Positions 1 to 61,710 are shown, numbered from the stretch's first letter. The stretch is DNA of 64,000 bases from a virus (IMGVR_UViG_3300025162_000052:3309-67308); one strand, 5' to 3'. Notes: generated by a model from the sequence alone, not told the origin. Numbers and translations: made by a program.

Positions 1-545
1 TCACAATGTTTATAGCCTGCTATGAAAGCATCTGAAATAGTATCTTTTAAATAATACCTTGTTTCTTGATTACAACATGAAATTTCAACATCTTCATATT
101 GTTTAGCAACTTCTTCTAATGTTTCATTAATTGAAGTTTTTTTTGAAATAGGTTTTAGAATAACTGTATCTACATAATGAGTAGTGAAATTCATTAGTTC
201 TAATTCATAAGCATAATCATCTCTTTTTTGAATACTTTTGAATTTATCTATTTTAGTATCACTTGCTCTGTAATAACTATGTATTTCATAAATAAACTCA
301 ACTTCAACTTCTTTACCTACCATATCATCACTTGCATTAGTGATTTGTGGTAGTGGTAATGAGGGATTAGTAGAACAAATGATTTTATCTCTATTAAGAT
401 TAACATCATGTCTTAATAATGTACCTTCACATGAATATACTTTATTTACATAAATATTATTCTCAATTAACCAATCATTTTTTCTTATTTCTGCTTTATC
501 ATCTATTACATAGTAATAGTCTGATATTTTAATTAGTTTCTTCAT
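1..545 (-). CDS. hypothetical phage protein (partial, runs off window start)
   Basis: Not in the ORF track. Open frame from ATG at 545: MKKLIKISDYYYVIDDKAEIRKNDW...ETLEEVAKQY...DAFIAGYKHC, with no stop before position 1. Confidence 0.8.
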   Translation of the reverse strand, partial: MKKLIKISDYYYVIDDKAEIRKNDWLIENNIYVNKVYSCEGTLLRHDVNLNRDKIICSTNPSLPLPQITNASDDMVGKEVEVEFIYEIHSYYRASDTKIDKFKSIQKRDDYAYELELMNFTTHYVDTVILKPISKKTSINETLEEVAKQYEDVEISCCNQETRYYLKDTISDAFIAGYKHC

Positions 546-654
546 ATCTATATATATATTTATAAGTTTATATTCATTTTAACTATAACAATTTAGTACT
601 ATTTCTAGTAGTCTCTTATACTACTTAAAAGTATGTTATTTTATAAGAGATTTT

Positions 655-773
655 GTGTGTTTAAATTTTAACATTAATAATAACTTTTACTAACTGGTAG
701 GCTCTTATCCCTACTAAGATATTTCAGTCATTATTACCAAGCTACTAACTTAATAGTTTTCTATTAAACACAC
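655..773 (-). ncRNA. intergenic multibranch RNA structure
   Basis: Perfect 10-bp inverted repeat GTGTGTTTAA 655-664 / TTAAACACAC 764-773. It encloses an 11-bp stem (with a G-U pair on the minus strand) and a GTAGG/CCTAC hairpin. Confidence 0.45.
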
Positions 774-789
774 TGGGATTTCAACCAAT

Positions 790-996
790 TTATTTACTTT
801 CAGGAACTAAATAAAAATCACTTTCTCTTATTGCTAATAAGACATTATTGTATTTTGTAGTATCTATTTCATGTATATTATTTGTATCCCAAGCATAACT
901 ATCAGCTATTTTAATAGCTTCTTCTTTTGTATTAGCATATACAATACATGCTCCTAAATTATAATTTGTTTGATAACCGAATATAAACGTTTTCAT
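790..996 (-). CDS. small hypothetical protein
   Basis: ORF track 790..1041; the likely start is MKTFIFGY at 996. Contains an IVYANTKEEA motif typical of small phage proteins. Confidence 0.75.
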   Translation of the reverse strand: MKTFIFGYQTNYNLGACIVYANTKEEAIKIADSYAWDTNNIHEIDTTKYNNVLLAIRESDFYLVPESK

Positions 997-1015
997 TGTA
1001 TATAATTTTATAAGG

Positions 1016-1129
1016 TTATTTACTATAATCAATACTACCACTTTTTCCTTTAGTAGTATTAGCTGTCTCTTTAACAGCTTTTTTGATTTTCTTTTTTTGT
1101 ATTAGTTTTGATGTCTCTCGTGTTGGCAT
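1016..1129 (-). CDS. 37-aa basic peptide
   Basis: MPTRETSKLIQKKKIKKAVKETANTTKGKSGSIDYSK*. AT-rich leader; fills the gap between neighbouring genes. Confidence 0.5.
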   Translation of the reverse strand: MPTRETSKLIQKKKIKKAVKETANTTKGKSGSIDYSK

Positions 1130-1159
1130 ATTAATTTAATTATTAATTGTTAATAATAG

Positions 1160-1257
1160 TGGCATATAGTAGAATCGAACTACCTATACATTTAAGTTTT
1201 CCTGTATCCAATGTCATAAAACTATTAGCTATTTAGTTCTCTATTGGAATATATGCC
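1160..1257 (-). ncRNA. tRNA-like element (acceptor stem plus T-arm, non-tRNA core)
   Basis: Minus strand: GGCATAT/ATATGCC 7-bp acceptor stem with discriminator A; T-arm GGTAG-TTCGATT-CTACT. The interior is a long TCCAAT...ATTGGA stem plus a TACA/TGTA hairpin instead of D and anticodon arms. Confidence 0.65.
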
Positions 1258-1267
1258 GAATTAAGCT

Positions 1268-1540
1268 TTATTTTACTATTAAATTATACCATTGTAATTC
1301 TTTTATGTTTTTATTCCAATATTCAGAATCTTTTCTTGTAACTAATCCTATTTTATTATCGTACATATATTCGTATAAAGGAATAGTTATAATTTGTTCT
1401 GTAGATTCTTTTGTTTCTTCTATAAAATAACTATTATAATGTATTATACAAGGAACTCCTTTATATAATCCAATAGTCTTACTGTTTATTGGTGGTAATA
1501 ATTTAGTACATTTTACTAAGTTTTTCTTTAAAAGTCTCAT
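1268..1540 (-). CDS. hypothetical protein
   Basis: ORF track 1268..1576; the likely start is MRLLKK at 1540. Confidence 0.65.
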   Translation of the reverse strand: MRLLKKNLVKCTKLLPPINSKTIGLYKGVPCIIHYNSYFIEETKESTEQIITIPLYEYMYDNKIGLVTRKDSEYWNKNIKELQWYNLIVK

Positions 1541-1571
1541 ATTATATAAATTTAAATTGTTAATATTAAAA

Positions 1572-1932
1572 AACAAACTCTTCTACCTTCTAAGTAAGGT
1601 AGTAGTGATATGAACTGACTTTTCACAACTCTATGGTTGGTATAACATCCAGTTTGCATGCTGCCTTCTCACATGGCATATCACTATCATTTTAAAACAA
1701 CAACTATCTTAGTAGTTTGATTAATTATAAGAATCTCTTCTTGTAAGTCTAATTGACTGTAATTTCTACAGGTTTTCTTACCTAATTATTAATCAAACTT
1801 AGTTGTAAATGTTTAACATTTAGATATTACTCTATCTCTATAGAGTGTACATGGTTGAGAATGGCTAATATAGCTATACTTACATCTCCTTGCTCCATTA
1901 GTAATATCTGTTTTAATTTGAAAGAGTTTGTT
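1572..1932. ncRNA. large (~360 nt) structured non-coding RNA candidate
   Basis: Closing stem 1572-1582/1922-1932 (11 bp). Nested perfect stems: 1583-1589/1596-1602, 1603-1612/1677-1686, 1714-1725/1788-1799, 1822-1831/1900-1909. No ORF in the track. Confidence 0.6.
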
Positions 1933-2049
1933 ATATTATTATTAAACATAGGCGATACTCAGACTATAGAATCATGTGCGCACATTATCTAATTTCTATC
2001 AGTATGTAGTCTGTGTATAACTTTTACCTATGTAAATAGATATTTTATT

Positions 2050-2126
2050 TAACGATATACGGAATCAACCGTTATCCTTACTCTTATTAGGAGTACGAGC
2101 TAAAGTTATATATGCTCCCTATCGTG
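2050..2126 (-). tRNA. degenerate tRNA / tRNA mimic, anticodon AAT (Ile)
   Basis: Cloverleaf on the minus strand: acceptor ACGATA/TATCGT, D-stem GAGC/GCTC, anticodon arm TACTC-CTAATAA-GAGTA, T-arm ACGG-TTGATT-CCGT. It lacks the D-loop GG, the T-loop C56 and an encoded CCA. Confidence 0.6.
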
Positions 2127-2282
2127 TTTATATATCTATTATATAAATTAATATGATAAATTTCAGCTCTCTATATAAGGATTAACCTTTGTTATCTGTT
2201 CACATGAACATTACTTGTGGTAATAACAGCAGCACTTTATTATCATATTATAGTATTAATTATATGCATTGGTAGAGGAATA

Positions 2283-2314
2283 CAAAATTAATAAATTATA
2301 TTTAATCTACCAAA
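2283..2314 (-). promoter_or_regulatory. Bacteroidota primary-sigma promoter (leftward)
   Basis: Minus strand TTTG-N20-TAATTTTG matches the -33/-7 consensus TTTG-N19-21-TAnnTTTG. Confidence 0.65.
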
Positions 2315-2542
2315 TTAGTGGTATAGAAATTAGTAGTAAAGTTAAATTGATAATATGTCCGATAATGGAAATATCGAGATTACCAAATTAATATACTACA
2401 ATTTATAAAATAATGATTAATAGTTAATTAGAAGGACAAATGTATAATGTAGTTTACAATGTAAGTAAGTAAACTTGACATTATAAGTAACACATAATTG
2501 ACATAGATTCTTGGTGATGTAAATAATACTTTACTATGACTG

Positions 2543-2695
2543 CTGTAACTATCTGATACTGCTAAAGAGAGTCCTTCTCTTTATAATTTTTCAACTCTCA
2601 GTGAAGTTTACGTAACGTTGAGAGTTTTCGAATGAAAATGAGAATATTTCGTCTTAATTTTCAAAGACTCGTCAGAGGTTTTAGTTTATATTAGC
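2543..2695 (-). ncRNA. hammerhead ribozyme candidate (type I topology, large stem III insertion)
   Basis: CUGACGA (2675-2669), then stem II GUCUU/AAGAC, then GAAA (2650-2647). Stem III AUAUU pairs with AGUAU, giving an AUC cleavage triplet at 2557-2555. Stem I is AG..UAGUU paired with AACUA..CU. Confidence 0.6.
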
Positions 2696-2958
2696 TATTA
2701 TTAATTAATTTGTTAAAATTCATAGTTGTTTTAATAGTTGGAATAGTAGTGTAGGAGTAATAGTCATTTATTACCTTTATCTCATCACTAAACTTAACCC
2801 TTATATTATATATATATTATCTACTATATATAATATACACCTTCGCCTTATAATTGTGTAACGTTATAACTTAAACCCTTTCAAGATCAAGCCATTACAT
2901 AAATTGTCCAACTATGACAACTCTGTCACTCAATTATTTAGCACTATTTTGTCCAATT

Positions 2959-3026
2959 GCTTAATTAACCCTAACCCTTCCCACTTACAACTGTCTGTAC
3001 TTATTCAAATGTTAGGGTAATTAAGC
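2959..3026. repeat. long inverted repeat / hairpin
   Basis: GCTTAATTAACCCTAAC 2959-2975 pairs with GTTAGGGTAATTAAGC 3011-3026 (one bulge). Confidence 0.6.
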
Positions 3027-3030
3027 TTTT

Positions 3031-3068
3031 AAAAGATACACTCCAACTTATAGTGTTAGAGTGTATCT
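3031..3068 (-). terminator. intrinsic terminator candidate after 3075..3473
   Basis: AGATACACTC/GAGTGTATCT 10-bp stem followed by a short T run on the minus strand, just after the stop codon. Confidence 0.55.
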
Positions 3069-3074
3069 AATTTT

Positions 3075-3473
3075 TTAATGTACTAAAGACAAGTCTTCAA
3101 TTGCCTGTTCGGTAGTTTTGGTAACCGGAGTAGCAATTTCATCAATGTTGAATATTTCAGCTTTACCTAATAAGGTTGAGCCTTGTAATACGTCCATTAC
3201 TGAAGCTTCTGCAATTTTACTCCAATTAATTCTTCTTCCGAATGCATCAGCTTCAGCTTCATTGTAGTTAAGTAAATAAGTTTTACCAACTACTAATCCT
3301 GTACGTTGTGCAATTGTACCACTCAAGAATAAACGATTTGGTGCTTTACCCGAAATCACTTTAAGCATTACATTTTGGGCATTGTTTTTATCTGTAGCAG
3401 AGTGTACTTTACCTGCTTTGTCTGTAAACTGGCTACGATTTTCAACTGTAGCTAATACCATTCCTGTTACCAT
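3075..3473 (-). CDS. hypothetical beta-rich protein, first gene of the leftward unit
   Basis: 132-aa ORF with a protein-like composition, followed by a terminator. Confidence 0.8.
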   Translation of the reverse strand: MVTGMVLATVENRSQFTDKAGKVHSATDKNNAQNVMLKVISGKAPNRLFLSGTIAQRTGLVVGKTYLLNYNEAEADAFGRRINWSKIAEASVMDVLQGSTLLGKAEIFNIDEIATPVTKTTEQAIEDLSLVH

Positions 3474-3918
3474 TGTATTTACGGTTTTAATAATTTATTA
3501 ATATAACAGCGTTATTTCATACGCAGAACTTGTCCATAGTTCATCAGAACTTTAGGTATCTTACACAATTGTTATAGGACTGATAACAACTGCTTGCAGA
3601 ACTACCTACATAAAGTCCGGTAATTCATGGGGATTATTGTACTTAGTAAATATATTACTATATTCACTATTCGCGACCCAGTCCCCTGTTTGGTCGTCAA
3701 TGTTGAGGAGTGGTATTTTGTCTAGGTGGTACTTGCTCTCAATAACATATAATTTTATAAAATTTTAAAAATTAATACTATATCATTACTTACAAAATTT
3801 TATAAAAAATTTTTATAGCTACATTACTACTATCTCATCATATACCTTACCACTATCTACATTACTCTATAACACTCAATACTTTCTCATTTTTATAATT
3901 ATAATTGTAGGAAAATTA

Positions 3919-3950
3919 TTTGGTAGTCTCACTTTTTTTAATTATATTTG
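3919..3950 (+). promoter_or_regulatory. Bacteroidota primary-sigma promoter of the rightward operon
   Basis: TTTG(3919-3922)-N20-TATATTTG(3943-3950). Confidence 0.75.
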
Positions 3951-3989
3951 CACATAATTTAAATGATATGTTTAATTAATTTGTTGAAT

Positions 3990-4172
3990 ATGAGGAAATT
4001 GATTATTACGGTTGGCGTGATTAGTATATTTGTAGTTATGTTGTATGGTGTGGCTATTATGATGATAGATAGGGTTAATACTAGGATAGATCATCGTATA
4101 GATAGTTTACAAAAGAGTATAGATAGTGTATTATACATACGTAAATTAGACAGTTTGACACATGGAAAGTAA
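3990..4172 (+). CDS. small membrane-anchored protein
   Basis: Likely start is MRKL at 3990. N-terminal hydrophobic helix followed by a short coiled coil (IDSLQKSIDS). Confidence 0.6.
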   Translation: MRKLIITVGVISIFVVMLYGVAIMMIDRVNTRIDHRIDSLQKSIDSVLYIRKLDSLTHGK

Positions 4173-14843: not shown

Positions 14844-17309
14844 ATGATAACAGGTTTAAGTATTACATCTAGTGTATTCCCAAGTCAATTAGTTGATACT
14901 GAGAAGAAACAAGATGAAAAATGGCAAAAAGATTGTGTAGATGGCGGTATTAATAAAGTACTCTACACAAATGATTATATGAGAAAGAGTAAGCAAGATA
15001 AAGTAGAGAACTATAGTATAGTTCATGGCAAATTTGATAGGAAAAAATTACTAGCACATCTTAATCCATTAATGTTGGAACAGGATGATATGGATGATGA
15101 TGTATATGAATTATTTGGAGATTCAGATGGGTATGCTATTATATTAGCACCATTAAAGACATTATTTGGTGAAGAATTAAAACGTAATTTTGATCCTAGA
15201 GCTTATGTAGTAAATGCAGATGCAGTAAGTGAGAAGGAAAGACTTATTAAAGATAAAGTTAATAAATTTTTAGATGAATTATTACAAGAGCAATTAAGTG
15301 AAGATGAAGTAAAGAAACGAACTGAGCAACTATTACAATGGAAAAATAAAGATGCTCAGACTATACATGAAACAATGGCTAATAATACATTAAAACATTT
15401 TCTACCTAAACAACAGTTTAAATGGAAGATGAATGATTGTTGGAAAGATTTATGTATAGCTGCTGAAGAATCTGTATATATAGGAGATGCTAACGGTGAG
15501 CCTTATATAAGAAAAACTAATCCATTACAAATAATGTGGTATGGTAATGGGCAGTCTAATAAAATACAAGATGCTACTATTATAGTAGAATGGGGATACT
15601 ATAGTATATCTGCTATATTAACAGAATTTGGTAAAAAGATAAAAGAAGAAGATTTAATTAAATTAGAAAATTATCTTAATTATGGGACAACATCTAGTGG
15701 TAGTTTAATTAAAACTGCACAAGTAGCACCATTTGTAAATATACACAATGTAATGTTACCATTAGATGATATGTCATATTCTGAAACAGGATTTTCCCCA
15801 TTTGGTTATACATGGTATGATAGACAAGGTAATATTCTAGTAGTAAGAGTAAATTGGTTGTCTCAACGTAAAATTGGTGATTTAAGTTATCCAGATGAAT
15901 TTGGAGAGACTCAGCATAAATTTGTACCTGAATGGTATAAAGTTAATAAAGATGTTGGAGAAACTGTAGATTGGTTTTGGATAAATGAGTGGATGTCTGG
16001 TATTAAAATAGGATATGATATTTATGCTGATATTAAAGTTAATGAAGTTCAGTATAGAAGTATAACTAATCCAGCAATATGTAGACCACCTTATGTAGGT
16101 ATAGTATCTAATATTAATAGTGGTAGAGCATATAGTATAGTAGATTCTATTAAAGAATTTGCTTATGAATATATAGTATATGCTAAAAAGTTAAAACACC
16201 TATGGTTAACTAACTTAGGTAGAATTGCCAATATAGATACTGCTAGTATTCCTACAGGTATGATGGAAGATGGTAGTAAATGGGATTTAAAACGTTGGTT
16301 TAATTTTATAAAAACACATCGTATAGCACTACGTAATAGTTTTCAAGAAGATAATAAAGGACATGCTGTAGGTAATATGCAGTCTCAAACTGGTTATATA
16401 GATATGACTGCTACTACTGAGATTGACCAAATAATAAGATATTTAGAGTATATAGAATCTAAAATAGATAAACTTAGTGGAGTTAGCCCACAAAGACAAG
16501 GTGATATAGCACCTTCTCAAGGATTAGGTACAAGTAATCAAGCTGTAGCGTATTCAGCAACTCAAACAGAGGATTTGTTTAATATGCATGAGGAATTTAA
16601 ACTAGATGTATTAAGATTCTTTTTAGAACAAGCTAAATGGTGTTTAAAAGATAAAAAAGTATTAGTACAAAATATACTAGATGACCAACAAATAAAACTA
16701 ATAGAGATTGATGGTGCATTATTTTCAGAAGCAGAATATGATATACAAATAACTAATTCGTATAAATTACAAGAATTTGAACGTATATTAAAAGGTGATA
16801 TATTAAGTAGAGCTGTACAAAATGGGTCAGTACAAATATCTGATGTAGCTGAAATGATGTTGTCAAATAGTCCAACTGATATGATTAATAGATTAAAAGT
16901 TGGAGAAAATAAAAAGATAGAAATGGAACAACAAAATCAGCAACAACAATTACAAATGCAACAAAAACAATTAGATGTACAAAGAGAAATGTTAGCATTA
17001 CAGCATAAAAATAAATTAGAAGAAATGGCTTTCCAAAGAGAAACTGATATGATGAAATTACAATTGCAATTACAAGATAAAGCTAATGCTGATGTATTTG
17101 GTCAATATTATAAAGATACTAATTTAAATGGTATAGATGATAATATAGAATTAAAAAAACAAGAATTAGTTAATACTGATAAAGAAAAACAAAGAACACA
17201 TGATGCAACACAATCAGAAAAAGATCGTAAACTACAGTTAGACTTGACTGAAAAAGATAATCAGACTAAATTAAAGATAGCTCATAGTAAAAAAAGTACA
17301 ACTAATTAA
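14844..17309 (+). CDS. portal protein
   Basis: 821 aa, follows terL. L.GEE.KR, W.WINEW..G.KIG, SGVSPQRQG and a Q-rich C-terminal coiled coil as in crAss-like portals. Confidence 0.92.
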   Translation: MITGLSITSSVFPSQLVDTEKKQDEKWQKDCVDGGINKVLYTNDYMRKSKQDKVENYSIVHGKFDRKKLLAHLNPLMLEQDDMDDDVYELFGDSDGYAIILAPLKTLFGEELKRNFDPRAYVVNADAVSEKERLIKDKVNKFLDELLQEQLSEDEVKKRTEQLLQWKNKDAQTIHETMANNTLKHFLPKQQFKWKMNDCWKDLCIAAEESVYIGDANGEPYIRKTNPLQIMWYGNGQSNKIQDATIIVEWGYYSISAILTEFGKKIKEEDLIKLENYLNYGTTSSGSLIKTAQVAPFVNIHNVMLPLDDMSYSETGFSPFGYTWYDRQGNILVVRVNWLSQRKIGDLSYPDEFGETQHKFVPEWYKVNKDVGETVDWFWINEWMSGIKIGYDIYADIKVNEVQYRSITNPAICRPPYVGIVSNINSGRAYSIVDSIKEFAYEYIVYAKKLKHLWLTNLGRIANIDTASIPTGMMEDGSKWDLKRWFNFIKTHRIALRNSFQEDNKGHAVGNMQSQTGYIDMTATTEIDQIIRYLEYIESKIDKLSGVSPQRQGDIAPSQGLGTSNQAVAYSATQTEDLFNMHEEFKLDVLRFFLEQAKWCLKDKKVLVQNILDDQQIKLIEIDGALFSEAEYDIQITNSYKLQEFERILKGDILSRAVQNGSVQISDVAEMMLSNSPTDMINRLKVGENKKIEMEQQNQQQQLQMQQKQLDVQREMLALQHKNKLEEMAFQRETDMMKLQLQLQDKANADVFGQYYKDTNLNGIDDNIELKKQELVNTDKEKQRTHDATQSEKDRKLQLDLTEKDNQTKLKIAHSKKSTTN

Positions 17310-17377: not shown

Positions 17378-17410
17378 TTTGTAAAATGACAATTAATATA
17401 ATTAAATTTG
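17378..17410 (+). promoter_or_regulatory. Bacteroidota promoter for the scaffold/capsid genes
   Basis: TTTG(17378-81)-N21-TAAATTTG(17403-10). Confidence 0.7.
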
Positions 17411-61311: not shown

Positions 61312-61314
61312 AAA

Positions 61315-61370
61315 AATAACCCACTACAATCCTATATGGAAAGTAGTGGGTTTATTTCTTTGAATTAAGT
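61315..61370 (+). terminator. intrinsic terminator after the RNAP gene (possibly bidirectional)
   Basis: CCCACTAC/GTAGTGGG stem flanked by an A tract and a T-rich tract. Confidence 0.75.
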
Positions 61371-61649
61371 CAATCTCCTTAAAGTGTATGTACAATTGTT
61401 CGGATAAAATTTTTATACTCAACTCTCAAAAAGTTAATTTATCAATTCTATAAAAAATAAATACAAAGGTTTTTCCTTTGGAGTTTTGTAAAATTAAAAT
61501 ACAATAAATGTTATATAAGATAAGATATAGATTTTGATACATTCTACTGATTTTAAATTAATTATAGAGATTTAAATACATTGTACACATTAGGTTTTAC
61601 ACTCATAAGTGTAAAGAATAATCTCAGGAGTGAATTAGTAGTATAAAAA

Positions 61650-61681
61650 TTTGGAAATTACATAAAGTTTTGTTTACTTTG
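61650..61681 (+). promoter_or_regulatory. near-consensus Bacteroidota promoter
   Basis: TTTG(61650-53)-N20-TTACTTTG. Confidence 0.55.
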
Positions 61682-61710
61682 TACATAAATTTAATTTAAA
61701 ACTAAAAAAT

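Follow-up and report, generated by a model that had tools for sequence, protein, structure and literature searches.

The window, that is, the whole stretch of 64,000 nucleotides that was analysed (IMGVR_UViG_3300025162_000052:3309-67308), comes from a freshwater crAss-like phage, and about 2.5 kb of mostly gene-free DNA lies in it within a leftward, minus-strand unit. The stretch is present in eight freshwater runs, one of which contains 54% of the sampled words, with no RNA run listed among them. Its features are given below from right to left, with z denoting the fold energy relative to dinucleotide shuffles.

3075-3473, minus strand: gene for a 132-aa protein, with its stop directly before the hairpin at 3034-3068
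3034-3068, minus strand: terminator-like 14-bp hairpin followed by UUUU (3033-3030); -19.6 kcal/mol, z -6.48, 0/200 shuffles
2959-3026, minus strand: long hairpin with a lower stem of 9+7 bp; z -4.1 to -5.2, 0/200 shuffles
2647-2675, minus strand: hammerhead catalytic core CUGACGA ... GAAA with the stem II hairpin, from direct reading and Rfam
2332-2399, minus strand: stable, near-continuous hairpin just upstream of the promoter candidate; z -4.87, 0/200 shuffles
2314-2283, minus strand: Bacteroidota-type promoter candidate, TTTGGTAG ... TAATTTTG, with a predicted leftward start near 2276
2149-2250, minus strand: module with an 11-bp A/T-rich closing stem; z -1.9 to -2.1, 3/200 shuffles
2051-2125, minus strand, inside the module 2035-2140: second tRNA-like element, a degenerate cloverleaf seen only by the metazoan-mitochondrial mode of ARAGORN
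1946-2033, minus strand: rod-like module with a closing stem of 7-8 bp; z -1.7 to -2.1
1572-1932, either strand: 361-nt multi-branched domain with a closing stem of 11-14 bp; z -6.2 (minus), -6.5 (plus)
1268-1540, minus strand: orphan 90-aa ORF, for which the protein search finds only itself, on 29 contigs
1161-1257, minus strand: first tRNA-like element, tRNA-derived, with a perfect 7-bp acceptor stem, a T arm and a discriminator A (1160)
1016-1129, minus strand: lysine-rich 37-aa ORF without a family match, of uncertain status as a gene
790-996, minus strand: 68-aa ORF with a weak match to phrog_10677 (E 0.0028)
655-773, minus strand: 119-nt module with a 10-bp closing stem, between the 68-aa ORF and a 225-aa ORF; z -3.5 to -4.2

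Read leftward, a terminator-like hairpin follows the 132-aa gene and is succeeded by about 0.7 kb holding the hammerhead core and stem II; then comes the promoter candidate, with some 0.7 kb of serial, independently closed modules, the degenerate cloverleaf among them, ending in a U-run; lastly, small ORFs are separated by the tRNA-derived acceptor/T-arm minihelix. The first-pass annotation had described this leftward unit as non-coding between its small genes, and 1577-3074 is non-coding: its longest ORF reaches at most 45 aa (table 11), and no credible frame was opened by TAG read as Q or by table 4. A gene recoded through TAA as Q was considered as well and gave only junk frames with 8-15 read-through codons each, and the search for pseudogene remains, with six-frame translations (stops as X) against PHROGs, returned 0 families. 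The protein database search found two relatives of the 132-aa protein (47-49% identity, on contigs shorter than 1 kb) and one relative of the exonuclease (49% identity, on an 8.4-kb contig). The predicted structure of the 132-aa protein has a pLDDT of 59.5, and Foldseek gave only weak OB-fold/SSB-like rows (E >= 0.06), which are not usable.

Nearly all of the intergenic sequence had been said to fold into closed modules arranged end to end, and the listed stems are indeed present (655-773, 1160-1257, 1572-1932, 1946-2033, 2035-2140, 2149-2250, 2543-2695 and 2959-3026). Nevertheless, tiling of the whole region by such modules with 7-9 bp stems is what chance would give, because shuffled A/T-rich sequence tiles alike: non-overlapping modules with perfect closing stems of at least 7 bp cover at most 0.95 of 545-3074 and 0.94 of the shuffles, and 72 of 200 shuffles attain the observed coverage. 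With regard to folding strength, the coding background (41 segments of 300 nt) has a mean z of -0.62 with an sd of 1.18 and a minimum of -3.77. The claim of folding better than shuffled sequence stood for 1572-1932, which exceeds all 41 coding controls, and for 655-773 and 2959-3026, but not for the other listed modules, which are weak (z -1.1 to -2.6 at 1160-1257, -2.4 to -3.2 at 2035-2140 and -1.3 to -1.7 at 2543-2695); for five of the eight, z never goes beyond -3.2 on either strand. The minus strand of 2251-2542 gave a z of -4.43. In fixed 150-nt windows on the minus strand (442 windows, first 33 kb), the region has a mean z of -1.24 against -0.61 for the rest (sd 1.34), a weak difference.

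Strand symmetry and perfect Watson-Crick pairing mark most closing stems, in the manner of DNA palindromes. Nine perfect inverted repeats of 10 bp or longer were counted; shuffles have 4.2 +/- 2.1, with 10 of 300 attaining nine, and one coding bin of equal size has 11. These perfect stems, together with the nearly equal folding of both strands, would favour a DNA-level element, in which the inverted repeats act in DNA and not in RNA, whether as an origin of replication, as hairpins for single-strand initiation or as palindromic sites for protein binding. The promoter candidate is bracketed by an 8-bp palindrome, and the region lies about 1-3 kb from a strand switch and cumulative GC-skew minimum near 3900. 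That minimum, however, falls together with the divergent gene units, outside the stretch under study; no iterons or tandem repeats were found in the region, and the absence of iterons speaks against an origin. The tRNA- and hammerhead-derived pieces, moreover, originate as RNA elements. A DNA-level role is regarded as the most improbable of the explanations considered.

The internal host-type promoter proposed by the first-pass annotation was recovered as the candidate at 2283-2314 (minus), which shares its -33 word and spacing with a site at 3919-3950 (plus), before the rightward unit. The Bacteroidota promoter pattern occurs 13 times in the window and 5.1 +/- 2.3 times in shuffled sequence, so that about 5 of the 13 are expected by chance. 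A sigma-70-type site (TTGACA-18-AATAAT, 2498-2527, plus) was rejected as not meaningful because the count in that scan, 37 sites, is near the shuffled 30.7 +/- 5.6.

The promoter candidate stands directly upstream, and a U-run (1571-1566, after the closing stem of 1572-1932 on the minus strand) directly downstream, of a string of modules which might be read as a single non-coding RNA, large and ornate, of about 0.7 kb (~2276-1566, minus) with its own host-type promoter and a tRNA-like module, in a context resembling, by analogy, that of GOLLD and ROOL. According to a preprint, these phage RNAs are often found near tRNA islands, and the GOLLD linker sometimes holds tRNAs (bioRxiv 10.1101/2024.12.08.627333). 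Moreover, the sub-range 1572-2250, chosen after inspection of the data, is alone in beating shuffles in tiling (stems of at least 9 bp, 2/200; at least 10 bp, 0/200), and the ensemble diversity of the ~0.7 kb string is below that of shuffles (1/12). On the other hand, the global fold of 1566-2276 consists of four independent serial modules with no long-range contacts, and the plus strand folds better than the minus strand (-166.7 vs -151.0 kcal/mol; z -5.5 vs -2.7, with 20 shuffles each; 22 vs 7 G-U pairs), for which reason a minus-strand RNA fits this string poorly. Within the 361-nt domain, three inner arms each have a perfect closing stem of 10-12 bp, with z values of -0.9, -3.6 and -0.9. 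The string likewise shares with GOLLD and ROOL a phage origin, a length of several hundred nucleotides, a high degree of structure and a position near tRNA-type elements; it differs from them in matching neither these nor any other Rfam family at gathering or at E<=10, in having no predicted pseudoknotted or long-range architecture and in having no known family of homologues. A single large RNA is considered unlikely. Only slightly better, and still low, is the chance that the host-type promoter drives a modular RNA of ~0.7 kb (~2276-1566) which, with the tRNA-derived elements, would form a new tRNA-like or ornate class with a non-decoding role; they might serve host enzymes that process or cleave tRNAs as substrates or decoys, or take part in a GOLLD/ROOL-like assembly, the hammerhead core having been recruited beyond self-cleavage.

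Two tRNA-shaped elements had been reported, and both exist on the minus strand, although neither passes the ARAGORN default, which finds 0 tRNA genes in the window, or the Rfam tRNA model (RF00005, threshold 29 bits), which, in 116-nt searches at E<=10, matched neither of them. In the first (1161-1257), the T arm reads GGUAG-UUCGAUU-CUACU with a 5-bp T stem, and the middle of 66 nt contains neither a D nor an anticodon arm, its candidate loops being of 9 and 12 nt. A strict acceptor/T-arm minihelix descriptor (7-bp acceptor, contiguous 5-bp T stem with G53-C61, T loop UUCRANY), which this element matches, has a counterpart in no more than 5 of 1000 shuffled genomes. Cutting by RNase P and RNase Z, as the earlier reading had supposed, is therefore plausible here, to judge from the perfect acceptor stem, the T arm and the rarity of the descriptor. 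In the second element (2051-2125; fold z -1.14), the acceptor stem counts 6 bp and the D stem 4 bp, the D loop being devoid of GG; an anticodon stem of 5 bp closes the 7-nt loop CUAAUAA (U33 and purine 37 present, A34 anticodon AAU), and a T stem of 4 bp closes a 6-nt loop, UUGAUU, in which C56 is absent. The elbow contact between D-loop G18-G19 and T-loop C56 is not seen in either element, the first having no recognisable D arm. Relaxed T-arm motifs number three on the minus strand and none on the plus strand, against 0.26 in shuffled sequence (1 of 500 shuffles reaches three), and mitochondrial-mode cloverleaf-like matches number five against 0.61 (0 of 100 reach five), at a density of 1.98 per kb here, compared with 0.34 per kb elsewhere on the contig. 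The ARAGORN options for a tmRNA or an intron-bearing tRNA gave nothing above noise. Two genuine tRNAs are encoded further left on the same strand (contig 127-196 and 282-355; 45.7 and 51.5 bits), the former with an abnormal anticodon loop.

The Rfam scan proposed along with the first-pass annotation returned 0 families in the region at the gathering thresholds, neither a tRNA nor any other; lax searches of 500-4000, 1560-1945, 2030-2145 and 1150-1265 gave noise apart from a weak hammerhead match. A short by-eye resemblance to RNase P RNA (GAAAAGUC) was dropped, its order being wrong and Rfam giving it no support. As regards the hammerhead, the pattern CUGANGA ... GAAA with a closed stem II is found at 2647-2675, and 29 of 29 bases of core and stem II are identical to the hammerhead in at least 118 IMG/VR stretches. 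The Rfam Hammerhead_3 model gives 16.5 bits (E 8.2) against a gathering score of 48.5, and the RAGATH-1-hammerhead model has no match at E<=10. The reported hammerhead is thus real in its core and stem II, but a complete one was not found: no partner for stem I or stem III occurs within 700 nt of the core. For stem III, which was taken to begin with the pair A15.1-U16.1 and to lead into a cleavage-site base other than G (H17), no type I partner lies within that distance, and the sole two type III-like candidates consist of A/U alone and do not exceed chance (with shuffled flanks, 280 of 500 runs give at least one); for stem I no partner of ...AAAACCU was found. The homologous 3' strand reads GAGAGUUGA here and GAGAGUGUC in the copy of the gut crAss-like phage cr131_1. 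When the fold is constrained to the core, no three-way junction forms; left unconstrained, the core pairs its UCUGA with a downstream UCAGA. Because stem I and a proper stem III are absent, this copy is probably inactive, and the proposed cutting by the ribozyme is not supported.

The supposed outcome of such cutting was that an active hammerhead, together with RNase P/Z, releases stable RNAs which would divert anticodon nucleases or RNA-sensing defences as decoys. There are tRNA-like shapes whose anticodon regions are odd, and the abnormal loop of the tRNA at contig 127-196 would be in keeping with them. Nonetheless, the hammerhead is short of the helices that cleavage requires, the search for a trans substrate yielded nothing plausible (a trans-acting hammerhead would have two weak target sites only, both antisense to coding genes), and PADLOC gave 0 matches on the neighbouring proteins. 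This combined model of an active ribozyme and decoys is held to be very unlikely. What holds of the earlier interpretation is the non-coding leftward unit, the hammerhead- and tRNA-derived elements and the promoter candidate; what does not hold is the cutting by the ribozyme and the novelty of the combination.

The best explanation appears to be a diverged, A/T-rich RNA-processing cluster of ribozyme/tRNA type, partly relic, of the kind which, by analogy, seems to punctuate small-gene units in other phages; it is put forward tentatively, at a little short of an even chance. Four pointers agree on the minus strand, namely the hammerhead core, the relaxed T-arm motifs, the promoter candidate and the U-run after the 361-nt domain. 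This reading is favoured by the non-coding character of the stretch, the genuine tRNAs on the same strand, the rarity of the minihelix, the density of cloverleaf-like matches, the folding of 1572-1932 and three hairpins beyond the coding minimum, and the precedent of cr131_1. Against it stand the better folding of the plus strand at 1566-2276, the strand symmetry of most closing stems, whole-region tiling and inverted-repeat density near chance, the failure of the tRNA models, the ~5 of 13 promoter-pattern matches expected by chance and the lack of relatives. In the mechanism that we propose, the minihelix 1161-1257, and perhaps also the cloverleaf 2051-2125, would be where host RNase P and RNase Z process the leftward RNA, in a manner similar to tRNA punctuation; the stable modules would shield the ends of RNAs or remain as small RNAs themselves, and the hammerhead would no longer cut. 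Punctuation of polycistronic RNA by tRNAs is a mitochondrial model.

The stretch could also be a functionless relic island, i.e., a decaying cassette of tRNAs, hammerhead and small genes in which residual helices lie among chance A/T-rich inverted repeats. This possibility, which we hold to be on the doubtful side but a serious one, would account for the missing stems I and III, all seven loci of the closest homologues (L124-L130) being complete, for the cloverleaf without D-loop GG and C56, for the first tRNA-like element without its anticodon arm, for the near-chance tiling and inverted-repeat counts and for the two of three inner arms of 1572-1932 that are unstructured inside (z -0.9). Yet the 29-nt core and the acceptor/T-arm minihelix are flawless, and random decay would not spare them; 361 nt at a z of about -6 exceed all 41 coding controls; the G+C content of 27-30% at 1651-2250 is not below the 21-25% of the adjoining genes; and no pseudogene trace was found in six frames against PHROGs. 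If instead, as in the RNA-processing cluster preferred here, the modules are made and processed as RNA, an environmental crAss-like phage would be punctuating or stabilising its leftward transcripts with tRNA-derived minihelices, in place of working tRNAs or ribozymes. If true, a freshwater case would join the phage islands of ribozymes, tRNAs and large RNAs, which are poorly understood.

Relatives of the region were not found in protein or DNA-pattern searches of IMG/VR (the latter giving only unrelated tRNA-Met genes), in metagenome contigs (only gut crAss-like hammerheads) or in GTDB genome contigs, and blastn against GenBank phages matched the hammerhead piece alone. As a single sequence of this kind, the locus is a lead and not a discovery. 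The literature searches gave nothing joining crAss-like phages with the hammerhead ribozyme and nothing relevant on structured RNAs in these phages. Theta (HDV-like) ribozymes are reported to adjoin phage tRNAs (Nat Commun 2024, PMC10879173); the notion that gut phages associate a small ribozyme with tRNAs would be common to both cases, whereas the ribozyme class here is a different one, with no HDV-like match. In comparison with phage tRNA arrays and tRNA punctuation, the locus likewise has an acceptor stem with T arm (1161-1257) and a cloverleaf (2051-2125), in modules of 85-105 nt set end to end on the strand of two genuine tRNAs, but both elements fail the tRNA models, the one without an anticodon arm and the other without D-loop GG and C56.

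Core and stem II are identical over 29 nt to phage type I/III hammerheads (RAGATH-1, RF03152; cr131_1), and 2631-2705 has 80-87% identity over 48-80 nt to copies on gut crAss-like contigs. Among 115 distinct copies, 102 are complete type I and seven clear type III, mostly located just upstream of a gene, while here stems I and III, the cleavage site and a gene downstream are all missing. The same 29-nt core and stem II is therefore used in both topologies across many phages and persists here without its helices. A tRNA lies within 300 nt in only 7 of 120 distinct copies elsewhere, and some 520 nt separate the relic from the closest of the tRNA-like elements here. The combination had not been recognised in the first-pass annotation, but there is a precedent in cr131_1 (NC_055902.1), which has four hammerhead-type matches, two above gathering (70.9 and 59.8 bits) and two below (43.8, cut by the record end, and 34.9), with tRNA-Met, tRNA-Gln and small CDSs on one strand with them. 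A weak sub-threshold RAGATH-12-like match occurs on the same strand of cr131_1. A cluster of the RAGATH type, defined by active hammerhead or twister ribozymes next to associated RNAs and genes, is present in cr131_1, whereas the locus described here has the hammerhead relic only and 0 RAGATH family matches; the two are alike in sharing a strand with small genes and tRNAs.

The phage lies on a single contig of 67,308 bases, of which the window takes bases 3309-67308, with a G+C content of about 24-32% all along. The window contains a 4675-aa ORF, and its portal-like protein (14844-17309) shows about 27-33% identity to portals of Crassvirales and of Cellulophaga and Flavobacterium phages (122 of 122 matched records are below 60% identity). 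The stretch occurs in eight public runs, drawn from three studies; each is a metagenome of freshwater, lake water or freshwater sediment, and there is no RNA run among them. The plus strand carries genes from 3963 on, while the non-coding stretch is part of a minus-strand, leftward unit reaching the contig start. This unit also encodes a 360-aa pentapeptide-repeat protein (contig coordinates 1666-2748, minus strand; Pfam PF00805, E 5.5e-69) with a C-terminal DUF5758 domain and no PADLOC match. The ORFs of the stretch are:

3075-3473, minus strand, 132-aa ORF
1268-1540, minus strand, 90-aa ORF
1016-1129, minus strand, 37-aa ORF
790-996, minus strand, 68-aa ORF
ending at 545, minus strand, 225-aa ORF

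The small ORFs are orphans, and the two relatives of the 132-aa protein (47-49% identity) both lie on tiny contigs; structure prediction gives this protein a largely beta-strand fold (pLDDT 59.5), for which structural comparison yields no better than weak OB-fold/SSB-like matches (E >= 0.06). The segment 1577-3074 is non-coding: with table 11 it has no open frame above 45 aa, and stop-to-stop frames reach at most 68 aa. Six-frame translations with stops read as X matched no PHROG family. A recoded gene was also considered and rejected: under TAG=Q or table 4 no credible frame appears, and TAA=Q gives only frames with many read-through codons, as in any A/T-rich DNA. Apart from the hammerhead piece, no relatives of the region were found among GenBank phages, IMG/VR, metagenome contigs and GTDB genome contigs. 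Our favoured, tentative reading is that the non-coding part of the leftward unit is a diverged processing cluster of the ribozyme/tRNA type, with a dead hammerhead, a tRNA-derived minihelix and a promoter-driven string of stable modules.

The hammerhead announced by the first-pass annotation stands as far as core and stem II are concerned (2675-2647, minus strand: CUGACGA and GAAA on either side of a 5-bp stem II capped by an 8-nt loop; Rfam score 16.5 bits), but not as a complete ribozyme. In the free fold a downstream UCAGA pairs with part of the core, and forcing the core open yields no three-way junction. Candidate stems are at chance level: shuffling the flanks gives at least one in 280 of 500 runs. 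A scripted tally of the copy as type III was discarded, since it rested solely on a 3-bp/4-bp candidate spanning 493 nt; a second type III-like candidate (5 bp/3 bp, in a TA-repeat) is likewise at chance level.

The 29-mer core, with C or U at its variable position, recurs in at least 118 IMG/VR stretches. Among the matches listed, 102 of 115 distinct copies are canonical type I, complete with stem I, an adjoining stem III and a cleavage base other than G, and are typically found in the gap separating one gene's stop codon from the start of the next; seven are clear type III with the same core, and five (L009, L020, L037, L059, L069) are neither. One core and stem II thus occur in two topologies across these loci (L003-L120). 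The type III copies, among the matches listed, are on contigs of about 96 kb, and some IMG/VR contigs have the motif two or three times, at intervals of about 400-600 nt.

The nearest homologues of the window copy, in the gut crAss-like phage cr131_1 and seven contigs (80-87% identity over 48-80 nt), are all complete ribozymes (...GAGAGUGUC/GGGAU), and the seven contigs share the same 5' strand of stem III. In the window copy about 45 nt are inserted, and GAGAGUUGA/AAAAU takes the place of the homologues' GAGAGUGUC/GGGAU. For a hammerhead to cleave, it needs three helices, the A15.1-U16.1 pair and a cleavage-site base other than G; by these rules the window copy, judged from its sequence, should not cleave. 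That the non-coding stretch is a non-functional relic is rather unlikely, in our estimate.

The combination of elements had been taken as unrecognised; in fact, cr131_1 (Suoliviridae, NC_055902.1) already joins them on one strand, with small CDSs, in about 2 kb wrapping the record ends:

L002 1-500 and L131 4089-5218 (loci of NC_055902.1), the cluster
RAGATH-1-hammerhead, four matches: 70.9 and 59.8 bits, above the gathering score of 56.3, and below it 43.8 (cut by the record end) and 34.9 bits
tRNA-Met and tRNA-Gln
RAGATH-12-like match, sub-threshold, 35.7 bits against a gathering score of 75

Between two of these hammerheads lies a non-coding segment of about 354 nt that would be released with ribozyme-made ends. 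The ribozyme-associated RNAs treated in PMC11061315 are mostly of unknown function. Together with the cr131_1 cluster, they make hammerheads, tRNAs and structured RNAs among small genes an existing pattern, from which the window differs in its incomplete ribozyme and non-canonical tRNAs. No paper on a hammerhead ribozyme in crAss-like phages was found in a literature search. GOLLD and ROOL, described in bioRxiv 10.1101/2024.12.08.627333 as large phage RNAs often near tRNA islands, resemble the locus in context only, and their Rfam models have no match there.

Two tRNA-shaped elements had been proposed as tRNA mimics:

1161-1257, minus strand, perfect acceptor stem GGCAUAU/AUAUGCC, discriminator A
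2051-2125, minus strand, cloverleaf with anticodon loop CUAAUAA, a 6-nt T loop and a D loop without GG

The shapes are present; however, ARAGORN in default mode and the Rfam tRNA model miss both, even at E<=10 in 116-nt Rfam searches, and they are therefore tRNA-derived or tRNA-like rather than tRNAs. The first has a canonical T arm (GGUAG-UUCGAUU-CUACU) and a 66-nt middle that folds without D or anticodon arm. A strict minihelix descriptor of its features matches in 5 of 1000 shuffled genomes and twice in the real contig, at 1161-1257 and at a genuine tRNA; a looser one matches shuffles too often to be significant (mean 0.67 per shuffle). Such a tRNA-derived minihelix could be cut by host RNase P/Z. 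The second is matched by ARAGORN in metazoan-mitochondrial mode only. The region is enriched for tRNA-like shapes: mitochondrial-mode matches on both strands number 5 against 0.61 +/- 0.72 in shuffles (0/100 reach 5), or 1.98 per kb against 0.34 per kb elsewhere, and relaxed T-arm motifs number three on the minus and none on the plus strand (0.26 expected; 1/500 shuffles). Two genuine tRNAs lie on the same strand past the window's left edge. One (contig 127-196, minus strand; Rfam 45.7 bits) has an anticodon loop of 6 nt, or of 8 nt with two wobble pairs open, and a 2-base ARAGORN anticodon 'cc'; it adjoins a normal tRNA-Met at contig 282-355.

Folding beyond chance was confirmed for some modules and not for others (z -1.1 to -6.5 for eight modules against dinucleotide shuffles, repeated with 200 shuffles). 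Compared with 41 segments of coding sequence, 300 nt each (mean -0.62, sd 1.18, minimum -3.77), we count as clearly outside the 361-nt domain 1572-1932 (-6.2 minus, -6.5 plus), 2959-3026 (-4.1 to -5.2) and 655-773 (-3.5 to -4.2); modules 1160-1257, 1946-2033, 2149-2250 and 2543-2695 lie inside the coding range. Within the 361-nt domain, two of three inner arms are 10-bp stems enclosing unstructured interiors (z -0.9). Two previously unlisted hairpins, both likewise outside the coding background, are 2332-2399 (z -4.87) and 3034-3068, 14 bp plus a U-run directly past the 132-aa gene (z -6.48). The intergenic region 61312-61710 also reaches -4.1, showing that a z near -4 can occur elsewhere too; on the plus strand, 3' of the 4675-aa ORF, it begins with a strong hairpin.

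The near-complete tiling of the stretch by closed modules carries no evidential weight: modules closed by perfect stems of 7 bp or more can cover 95% of 545-3074, against 94% in shuffles (72/200 reach the observed value). Tiling exceeds shuffles only in 1572-2250, a sub-range picked post hoc, with stems of at least 9 or at least 10 bp (2/200, 0/200). The region has 9 inverted repeats of 10 bp or longer, where shuffles average 4.2 +/- 2.1 (10/300 reach 9) and an equal-size coding bin has 11. The perfect Watson-Crick pairing of the closing stems would also suit a role at the DNA level, although iterons were not found.

For the proposed internal host-type promoter, the Bacteroidota-type candidate at 2314-2283 (minus strand) has the same TTTGGTAG word and spacing as 3919-3950 (plus strand), just ahead of the rightward unit. 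The pattern scanned, TTTG-N(15-23)-TAnnTTTG, follows the Bacteroidota-type consensus and has 13 matches in the window, where shuffles give 5.1 +/- 2.3 (0/100 reach 13); these lie at 3919-3950, 17378-17410 (plus strand) and 11 further sites; two matches are just upstream of gene starts. A sigma-70-type match at 2498-2527 (plus strand) was set aside as not meaningful (37 sites, 30.7 expected). The candidate promoter would start a minus-strand RNA near 2276, which would comprise modules 2250-2149, 2140-2035 (with the cloverleaf), 2033-1946 and 1932-1572; UUUUUU directly follows the closing stem of the last. The terminator-like hairpin 3034-3068 and the promoter candidate mark off two segments of the stretch, each about 0.7 kb long; the hammerhead relic is in the upstream segment, and the promoter-to-U-run module string makes up the downstream one.

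That the stretch encodes a new large RNA is improbable. Speaking against a minus-strand RNA, the plus strand of 1566-2276 has the more stable fold (-166.7 against -151.0 kcal/mol; z -5.5 against -2.7, 20 shuffles each), with 22 G-U pairs against 7. Conversely, 2251-2542 folds better on the minus strand (z -4.4 against -2.0), so the strand cannot be told from folding. An 8-bp inverted repeat, TTGGTAGA ... TCTACCAA (2265-2313), brackets the promoter candidate and could be an operator or a 5' hairpin.
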